DNA of 45,795 bases from an uncultured Bacilli bacterium (GTDB lineage Bacteria; Bacillota_I; Bacilli_A; RF39; UBA660), in contig CANQAT010000003.1 in assembly GCA_947588925.1 (NCBI GenBank), positions 1 to 45,795 of the forward strand, written 5' to 3'. A program made the position numbers and the translations under genes. Below the pieces are notes generated by a model. The model saw only the letters and a program-made list of their open reading frames with translations, did not search any database and was not told the origin of the DNA. Below are positions 7,638 through 7,766 of this stretch, piece by piece (position 1 is the stretch's first letter; every line of letters begins with the position of its first letter).

Positions 7638-7738
7638 ATTTTTATAAAAAATGTATAGTGTTTACACTCACAACACGTTTTAAATAAGCATTTAAAGGTA
7701 ACATTTTCGTTAAATCAAATTTTTGTTTAAACTCCCCC

Positions 7739-7766
7739 TTGACAGGGGGGGGGGGGGGGGTATGAT
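7739..7766 (+). promoter_or_regulatory. SigA promoter with a poly-G spacer (phase-variable)
   Basis: TTGACA (7739-7744), then G16 (7745-7760), then TATGAT (7761-7766). Confidence 0.85.

Follow-up and report, generated by a model that had tools for sequence, protein, structure and literature searches.

Phase variation by a promoter homopolymer is textbook knowledge for a handful of pathogens. In Mycoplasma hyorhinis, every member of the vlp family has its own poly-A tract in the promoter spacer, which gives combinatorial expression, and the members share a conserved 5' cassette (promoter, leader, and signal peptide) followed by a divergent, surface-exposed part. In Bordetella pertussis, the length of a C/G homopolymer (poly-C) in the promoter switches the fimbrial subunit genes fim2 and fim3; these promoters are BvgA-dependent, and the products are chaperone-usher fimbriae of a Gram-negative pathogen. 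In Neisseria meningitidis, a poly-G tract lies between the -35 and -10 boxes of the surface protein gene porA, and its length sets expression (PMC3639595, PMC7864442). Treponema pallidum tp0126 has a poly-G tract in the same position, for which a spacer of 17 nt is optimal and whose length varies within isolates (PMC7864442). The mechanism itself is already known from porA, tp0126, and vlp. Here, we describe a run of 16 G's (G16) between promoter-like boxes; the gene that follows encodes a modular type IV pilin bearing a leucine-rich repeat (LRR) module. It lies in a stretch of 45,795 nt from an uncultured Bacilli bacterium (GenBank GCA_947588925.1, contig CANQAT010000003.1, positions 1 to 45,795), referred to below as the window, or as contig C3 of genome G000. 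In a search of the open-access literature, supplements excluded, we came across no description of pilin genes with homopolymer promoters from this lineage.

Like the vlp genes, each gene of the set described below has its own homopolymer promoter, and its 5' cassette is conserved while the rest of the gene diverges. The vlp products are lipoproteins and the tracts poly-A, whereas here the tracts are poly-G (poly-T in sister species) and penicillin-binding proteins are present; furthermore, the genes are not vlp members, since their products carry prepilin, not lipoprotein, signals. As in porA, a surface protein gene has a sigma-70-type promoter whose spacer contains a run of G's. However, porA, a gene of a Gram-negative pathogen, is one locus, whereas the poly-G promoters described here number at least 13 and belong to a genome-reduced, uncultured Bacilli lineage of the gut, with longer tracts (11 to 19 G's; 20 at one contig end) and an extended -10. 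T. pallidum tp0126 and the tpr genes are similar in having poly-G in the promoters of several paralogous surface-protein genes, but they belong to a spirochaete and encode outer-membrane proteins, their tracts have 7 to 12 G's, and some tpr tracts lie 5' of the start site instead of in the spacer (PMC7864442).

Two described cases resemble the gene products. The uncultivated, genome-reduced, and host-associated "Candidatus Mycoplasma girerdii" has at least 28 genes for BspA-like LRR surface proteins, eight of which showed repeat-length variants in vivo, and the majority allele of these genes was often "off" (PMC5476646). It shares with our case the BspA-like LRR surface proteins and the status of an uncultivated, genome-reduced relative of the Bacilli; it differs in that dinucleotide repeats in the coding sequence exert control by frameshift and that the proteins are not prepilins (PMC5476646). 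Modular type IV pilins, in which the pilin module at the N-terminus is joined to a functional binding module that the filament presents, are widespread and diverse (PMC8179133). In PilB and PilC of Streptococcus sanguinis, as here, an extra module follows a pilin module with a class III signal. The module of PilB is a von Willebrand A module, and that source does not report it as phase-variable, whereas here there are dozens of modular pilins per genome; the term "Leucine-rich" is absent from the text of the same source (PMC8179133).

The features of the locus are as follows.

7734-7738, plus strand: C5 run CCCCC, preceded by a t at 7733 and directly 5' of the -35 box (read from the sequence)
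7739-7744, plus strand: -35 box TTGACA (sequence and consensus scan)
7745-7760, plus strand: G16 homopolymer, the proposed slippage tract (sequence; one of 18 G/C runs of at least 8 in the genome)
7761-7766, plus strand: TATGAT, the -10 box of the first-pass annotation, with a 16-nt spacer, and a possible second register (consensus scan)
7763-7771, plus strand: extended -10 by homology, with TG at 7763-7764, A, and TAGAAT at 7766-7771, and a 21-nt spacer (automatic assignment at 13 loci; alignment with the neighbour and the paralogs)
7792-7797, plus strand: ribosome-binding site GGGAGG, 6 nt 5' of the ATG (read from the sequence)
7804-9354, plus strand: gene for a 516-amino-acid modular type IV pilin (Pfam, AlphaFold model, and Protein Data Bank [PDB] matches)

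The first-pass annotation, made from the letters of the window, had pointed out TTGACA-G16-TATGAT in front of a pilin gene with BspA-type repeats, and the sequence reads exactly so, with 37 nt separating TATGAT from the ATG (7804-7806). A search for G8 on both strands of the window gave nine overlapping matches, all within 7745-7760 (0.04 expected from 100 shuffles). G16 is therefore the sole G/C run of at least 8 in the window, whose GC content is 23 to 35% per kb, and the description of it as the only long G run in low-GC surroundings was correct. In a consensus scan of 5700-10200, TTGACA-16-TATGAT was among the top three promoter-like sites, each with 11 of 12 matches; the other two, TTGACA-17-TAAAAT at 5878 and TTGACA-17-TAGAAT at 10118, both have a TG. 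Promoter-like sites as such occurred in this region at chance level (31 vs. 29.3 ± 4.8 expected).

The tract is not alone in the genome, which comprises 1,281,930 bases in 80 contigs (27.3% GC, 95.55% complete). There are 18 G/C runs of at least 8, with lengths of 8 to 20, and just ten runs of length 6 to 7. All 18 are tied to prepilin-type genes and none lies elsewhere in the genome; the 110 nt 5' of all prepilin starts make up 0.2% of the strand-specific genome positions. Oriented as G, 17 of the 18 have TTGAC(A/G) directly 5' of the tract. At 13 loci the set is complete, with a -35 box, a tract of 11 to 19 G's, an extended -10 (TGn plus TA(G/A)AAT, GATAAT, or GACAAT) within a few bases of the tract, and a prepilin ATG 38 to 43 nt after the tract. 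Four tracts are cut by contig ends (C32, C37:12, C46, and C62), one of them with 20 G's, and the 18th run is a G9 in frame within a prepilin leader (C25:313-321). Thus, what had been proposed as a single switch is instead one unit of a genome-wide and lineage-wide system, with 17 of the 18 runs in the same promoter position. The genome holds at least 13 complete putative switches of the same build, and probably 17.

A motif search found 46 N-termini of the G-F-T-L-x-E type, at least one of them spurious (a 29-amino-acid frame on C15); the genome has about 45 prepilin-type genes. The poly-G loci are true paralogs sitting in different contexts. Their cassettes share approximately 160 to 200 nt 5' and 150 nt 3' of the tract, with 90 to 98% identity in the closest comparisons, and then diverge. 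Among nine full-length poly-G-driven genes, including that of the window, five encode DUF285/BspA-type LRR proteins, three have the pilin motif only, and one has DUF6273.

Some copies depart from the common form. The G20 at C37:12-31 runs into 11 A's at the contig end; this end looks like an assembly artefact, and the copy was not counted as a complete promoter. On C2 (around 21,100; gene ending at 21071) and C32 (around 7,750; gene ending at 7692), the same place is taken by a tract that A and T interrupt, GGGAGGGGGGTGG, with an 18-nt spacer; these have the look of alleles that can no longer slip. Another copy, located 5' of the C52 cassette, is degenerate and reads G7 A GG.

The G16 run is not a sequencing artefact, since it has unique sequence on both sides and recurs at 13 complete loci and in the assemblies of other species. 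As an account of the runs in general, poly-G from two-colour chemistry or an assembly error is highly improbable, and the first-pass annotation had named it as a reason to doubt the tract. A contig end is no more than 75 nt away from seven of the 18 runs, the one at C37:12-31 continues into an A run, and public contigs stop short of the tract: none of the contigs from four (X1, X2, X3, and X5) of seven public runs bridges 7717-7826, with depths of 0.35, 0, 0, and 0 in 7710-7790. However, at 11 loci the nearest contig end is 300 nt away or more and the run is flanked by specific sequence on either side. The run always starts directly after TTGAC(A/G), assemblies of other species and genera show this design as well, and interrupted and poly-T versions exist. 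Contigs also break at the cassette because it is a multi-copy repeat. The exact tract length rests on a low-coverage assembly, with flanking public contigs at a depth of approximately 4 to 5.

The arrangement is also conserved among relatives. Exact TTGACA followed by G9 was present in 5 of 27 genomes of the genus and the reversed pattern in none. A prepilin pattern (G9, 15 to 50 nt, ATG, 1 to 9 codons, prepilin motif) matched in 8 of the 27 (G000, G002, G004, G005, G012, G020, G021, and G022), again with no match of the reversed control. The T12 version of the prepilin pattern was absent from G000 and matched in four other genomes (G008, G016, G042, and G001; control 0), with 44 overlapping T-run matches, T12 to T19, in G008. 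These T runs (loci L169-L180) follow cTTG and precede G(T/C)GATAAAAT, i.e., they lie between cTTG and the extended -10. With poly-G in some species and poly-T in others, it is the position and the homopolymer property that are conserved, not the base. In an even draw across the order, allowing a gap of 20 to 50 nt, 15 of 301 genomes and 10 of 127 genera matched, and the controls gave none.

We consider it probable that the tract is part of a slippage-driven, promoter-spacer expression switch of a modular pilin gene, one of many in this genome. In this model, G16 would be a contingency tract at which strand slippage during replication adds or removes G's; gain or loss would shift the distance from TTGACA to the -10 region, this distance would set the rate of initiation by a sigma-70-type RNA polymerase at the gene at 7804-9354, and each cell lineage would display its own subset of pilus-borne binding modules. 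The model draws on the anatomy of the locus, on the fact that it recurs in the genome and is conserved in other species, and on the protein family treated below, and from these we infer slippage at the window locus, a dependence of transcription on tract length, and display on pili. The comparative data make it very likely that the homopolymer would be a designed switch. The first-pass annotation had read the locus as a phase switch of a pilin-LRR adhesin. This is right in kind, with the tract between a perfect -35 and a -10, recurring, and present as poly-G or poly-T in sister species; it is wrong in register, and by treating a single locus it understates the scale.

The register follows from the comparison of cassettes with the tract-free promoter of a neighbouring gene.

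5878-5906, plus strand: reference promoter of the neighbouring pilin-like gene (ATG at 5938), TTGACA-17-TAAAAT with TG and no homopolymer (11 of 12 matches in the scan)

The neighbour reads cTTGACA-gttaagtttagtgcTGaTAAAAT, and its TGaTAAAAT aligns with TGaTAGAAT at 7763-7771 of the window. The two leaders can be aligned, and the spacer of the neighbour is an ordinary 17 nt, both as previously noted. Class A cassettes (C1, C3, C12, C36, and C37:12, four of them complete) read TTGACA-Gn-(T)ATGATA(G/A)AAT, and class B cassettes (seven complete copies) read TTGACA-Gn-CAATGAGATAAT. All 13 complete cassettes have an extended -10 with TG, as do the non-variable neighbour and sister species; TGnTA(G/A)AAT also follows the tract in the sister species G002, G012, G020, and G021. 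The T at 7761, needed for TATGAT, is unique to the window among the four complete class A copies of the genome; the string of G run plus TATGATAGAAT was found once in another genus (G091:C6). Measured to the homologous -10, the spacers are as follows.

17 nt: C1, C4, and C28
19 nt: C29, C52, and C53
20 nt: C37 and C64
21 nt: the window (C3)
23 nt: C12 and C36
24 nt: C7 and C71

The window's tract thus makes up 16 of the 21 spacer bases to TAGAAT. The spacer had been described as 16 nt, one short of optimal, but the -10 conserved in 13 of 13 cassettes (TGaTAGAAT in the window) gives 21 nt. With this spacer, we expect the assembled allele to be off or low in most cells, and the optimum to be G12. 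TATGAT is possibly a second register, in which the allele would be sub-optimally on and the optimum would be G17.

Three of the 13 loci have a 17-nt spacer and 10 are far from it. Together with the TG motif of every assigned -10 and the nature of the cassette, a repeat that spreads with the gene family, this would suit tracts that are hypermutable by-products of cassette duplication, the extended -10 alone setting expression. We find this quite unlikely. Each of the 17 promoter loci, and also those of other genera, has kept TTGAC(A/G) next to the tract, the arrangement has arisen with G as well as with T, and long G runs are otherwise absent from the genome; the lack of any G/C run of at least 8 outside these genes at 27% GC argues for maintenance by selection.

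Tract lengths differ between similar cassettes: paralogs with about 94% identity over 310 flanking bases differ by 7 G's (G11 in C4 vs. G18 in C7/C71; 94.2%). Several observations nevertheless weigh against a freely slipping, spacer-tuned switch. The closest paralog pairs are equal in length (C12/C36, 98.7% flank identity, both G19; C7/C71, 95.8%, both G18), and flank identity correlated weakly with length difference (55 pairs, rho -0.23, p 0.086), so the consensus length is not quickly randomised. In G002, all 20 loci examined (L181-L200) have G10 (8 loci) or G11 (12 loci), with spacers of 20 nt (10 loci), 19 nt (7), 17 nt (1), 16 nt (1), and one unassigned, and the sole locus at 17 nt lacks three bases outside the tract. 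This distribution is strikingly narrow, and a freely drifting tract would not give it. Spacers in other genera are also 18 to 21 nt, clustering at 19 to 20. Either the majority state of nearly all loci is off, or these promoters do not obey the 17-nt rule and have another optimum or depend on an activator; an off majority would fit the stochastic display of adhesins proposed below. An extended -10 can work without a well-placed -35, and basal activity from the TG motif may make the tract a dimmer rather than an on/off switch. MutS and MutL domains are present in open frames of 848 and 604 amino acids, which leaves no repair defect to boost slippage, and loss of mismatch repair was rejected as a cause of instability on this ground. 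Finally, a promoter-like site at 7609 could read through into the gene.

Part of this evidence would suit a tract that acts through its structure, such as a G-rich non-template strand, or that is bound by a factor, like the activator site of activator-dependent fimbrial promoters, with its length held and no switch. At each of the 14 loci with a visible downstream gene, the G's are on the sense strand, and the narrow G10/G11 lengths of G002 with spacers of 19 to 20, the clustering of other genera at 19 to 20 instead of 17, and the equal lengths of the closest paralogs point in the same direction. However, sister species have poly-T at the same place, which can neither form G structures nor bind the same factor. 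Furthermore, the 13 complete loci have similar cassettes but tracts of anything between 11 and 19 G's, interrupted tracts exist, and most tracts (9 to 14 G's) are below the established length threshold for an intramolecular four-stranded G structure. We therefore regard such a role as unlikely and keep to the slippage switch.

The sites flanking the gene are listed here.

7530-7556, plus strand: putative AT-rich terminator-like hairpin and T run after the upstream pilin-like gene (stop at 7519-7521), AAAGATGAT ... ATCATCTTT and then T's
7609-7637, plus strand: promoter-like site TTGCAA-17-TATAAT, without TG, 10 of 12 matches (consensus scan)
9380-9409, plus strand: putative imperfect AT-rich terminator-like hairpin and T run 3' of the adhesin gene (read by eye)

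The terminator scan, which demands three G-C pairs, flagged no terminators, and the two AT-rich hairpins escaped it for this reason. With terminator-like hairpins on either side, the gene at 7804-9354 looks monocistronic, and the sequence suggests that it is. It could be transcribed mainly from the 7609 site, which would place the G tract in the 5' untranslated region with little effect or one at the RNA level. The site has 10 of 12 matches, it is kept with an overlapping palindrome in the class A paralogs C12 and C36, and no terminator was flagged between it and the gene. Against this, sites of this kind are at chance frequency (31 vs. 29.3), this one is no more conserved in C12 and C36 than its surroundings (approximately 81% identity), and class B cassettes have the same core of -35, tract, and -10 without it. 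The leader folds no better than shuffles, and an Rfam search of 7400-7900 (E up to 1) gave no match. We hold transcription mainly from 7609 to be very doubtful. The palindrome itself, TTGCAAA-7 nt-TTTGCA (7609-7630), is kept in three class A cassettes, those of the window, C12, and C36, and is a possible operator.

It had also been suggested that the CCCCC before the -35 box pairs with the G run. The predicted hairpin has -17.9 kcal/mol, compared to -16.05 ± 2.22 kcal/mol in shuffles (z -0.83), and 40 of 200 shuffles fold equally well; we rejected it as a special feature. It is not a general one either. C5 is present in the class A cassettes C1, C3, C12, and C36, reads CCCCAC in C37, and is missing from class B, the larger class, which has CCTC.

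The identification of the gene as a pilin-LRR gene was borne out. Pfam matched N_methyl (E 7.4e-08), DUF285 (6.1e-56, three stretches), and LRR_8 in the 516-amino-acid open frame, with DUF285 and LRR_8 at about residues 240 to 440. The N-terminus, MKNKG/FTLIE (written as MKNKG followed by FTLIELLAVIVILAIIALIAVP or FTLIELLAVIVIL), is a class III (prepilin) signal peptide, with a short basic leader, G at -1, F at +1, E at +5, and a hydrophobic helix. A protein search at E ≤0.001 gave 93,041 matches, and the best 150 of these were almost all giant repeat proteins. The DUF285/LRR module is so ubiquitous that the matches were useless for an alignment of the full architecture, and the AlphaFold model was therefore built from an alignment of six paralogs. 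It has a mean predicted local distance difference test score (pLDDT) of 77.7 and a predicted template modelling (TM) score of 0.70. The model shows a helix at 8-63, a small sheet (the pilin head) of low confidence at 71-110, with pLDDT <50 over 34-128, and a solenoid from about residue 130, with pLDDT >90 over most of 150-490. A non-pilin module, the DUF285/LRR solenoid, thus follows the pilin module. The best PDB matches of the model were the LRR cell-surface proteins of gut bacteria 4fs7 (E 1.9e-06, TM 0.34/0.43), 4gt6, and 4h09, followed by Leptospira LRR proteins, internalins, and PcpA. Sequence and model together suggest a putative surface-exposed or host-interaction protein, for which "pilin-LRR adhesin" is a fair name; adhesion and display on pili would follow from the architecture. 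The search of the open-access literature found no paper linking DUF285 with type IV pilins, and the papers that it gave for the two terms together concern Lactococcus surface proteins.

Machinery for such a pilus is encoded in the genome: a Peptidase_A24 prepilin peptidase on C8 (61.6 bits), three T2SSE-type assembly ATPases on C42, C8, and C1, and two GspF/PilC-type platform open frames on C8 with four T2SSF-domain matches. Tentatively, and with slightly less belief than doubt, we propose that this uncultured, genome-reduced family of gut Bacilli runs a "pilus-tip lottery," in which dozens of modular pilins, with LRR or other binding modules, each have their own homopolymer promoter. If true, one pilus machine could present stochastically changing adhesins to host, diet, or partner cells, a commensal type IV pilus counterpart of the antigenic-variation systems of mycoplasmas and Neisseria. 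The lottery may also include two further read-outs of the tract, a frameshift in the leader and, in other genera, the G arm of a terminator-like hairpin, a proposal that we hold just as tentatively.

The promoter-homopolymer device would here operate at genome scale, with at least 13 complete switches among about 45 prepilin-type genes, and it recurs in 10 of the 127 sampled genera. If the tracts slip, commensals would vary pilus-borne adhesins cell by cell, which bears on colonisation and on escape from antibodies and phages. The breaking of contigs at the cassettes bears on how such genomes are assembled and read. Furthermore, the G, T, interrupted, and tract-free versions of one promoter form a natural series for studying spacer length and composition against strength in Gram-positive-type bacteria.

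Homopolymers in other positions were seen in relatives. At L098:3721-3730, in another genus, a G10 lies in the prepilin leader, with the pilin body in +1 relative to the ATG and a stop 16 codons after it. It is homologous to the G9 of C25, at the same leader position, one being out of frame and the other in frame, and the coding-leader poly-G of both represents a translational version of the proposed switch. In G017, near-identical short frames starting MNINKNLTGGG carry TTGACA-G9 and TTGACA-G10 (L011/L016) within the coding region; on visual inspection, one of them is in frame, whereas the other is shifted. In G004, TTGACA-G10 followed by ...TGtTATAAT precedes genes with lipoprotein-like signal peptides (MKKLCGLFVCMLA...) at L009 and L019, and the homopolymer promoter in relatives is thus not confined to prepilin genes. 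In other genera (G250, G186, and G207; also G224, G280, and G316), G9 to G10 before prepilin genes lies outside the -35/-10 spacer and forms the 5' arm of a terminator-like hairpin (short loop, CCCCTC-type arm, and T run), approximately 20 to 25 nt before the ribosome-binding site. Examples are L149:1501-1545, L151:1501-1550, and L152:1501-1550, and there are many loci per genome, e.g., 30 overlapping matches in G186. The L151 hairpin has a z of -3.36; for L149 and L152, folding did not surpass that of shuffles.

A comparison of EF-P loci showed no conservation of the poly-G gene at its place. Of 80 such loci, the 23 at 92 to 96% EF-P identity (L041-L063) had no G/C run of at least 7 within 3 kb, and 12 of these had one prepilin-type start after EF-P. 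When the 27 genomes of the genus were searched with 7900-9354, the body of the gene, the 26 sister species yielded no ortholog; the best foreign match was 69 to 70% identical over at most 678 of 1455 nt, in the repeat region. A scan of metagenome contigs for CTTGACA-G8...ATGAKADAAT gave one match (L128), a G8 in a different, GC-rich context, with no pilin gene within the 301 nt read.

The window as a whole is ordinary chromosome, with PBP2, EF-P, PolC, Der GTPase, IleRS, SepF, and DivIVA. The EF-P relatives at 92 to 96% identity are all metagenome-assembled genomes from animal and human gut, and one at 72% identity is filed under Mycoplasmatota incertae sedis by NCBI. At 33630-35126, three tandem small pilin genes encode proteins of 137, 135, and 135 amino acids (N_methyl E 1e-08 for the two scanned), and their promoters, almost identical to one another, have no tract (TATTGACA...TGaTATAT); the filament's major pilins may be among these candidates. 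Within 12 kb, the window also encodes three paralogs of 832, 838, and 863 amino acids in which an ABC-ATPase is fused to an FtsX-permease (20046-22544, 22694-25210, and 29531-32122). Finally, a choloylglycine (bile-salt) hydrolase family protein (25216-26238; E 9.9e-104) and a germination protease (32566-33585; E 6.7e-103) hint at a gut-adapted, possibly spore-forming organism despite the 1.28-Mb genome.

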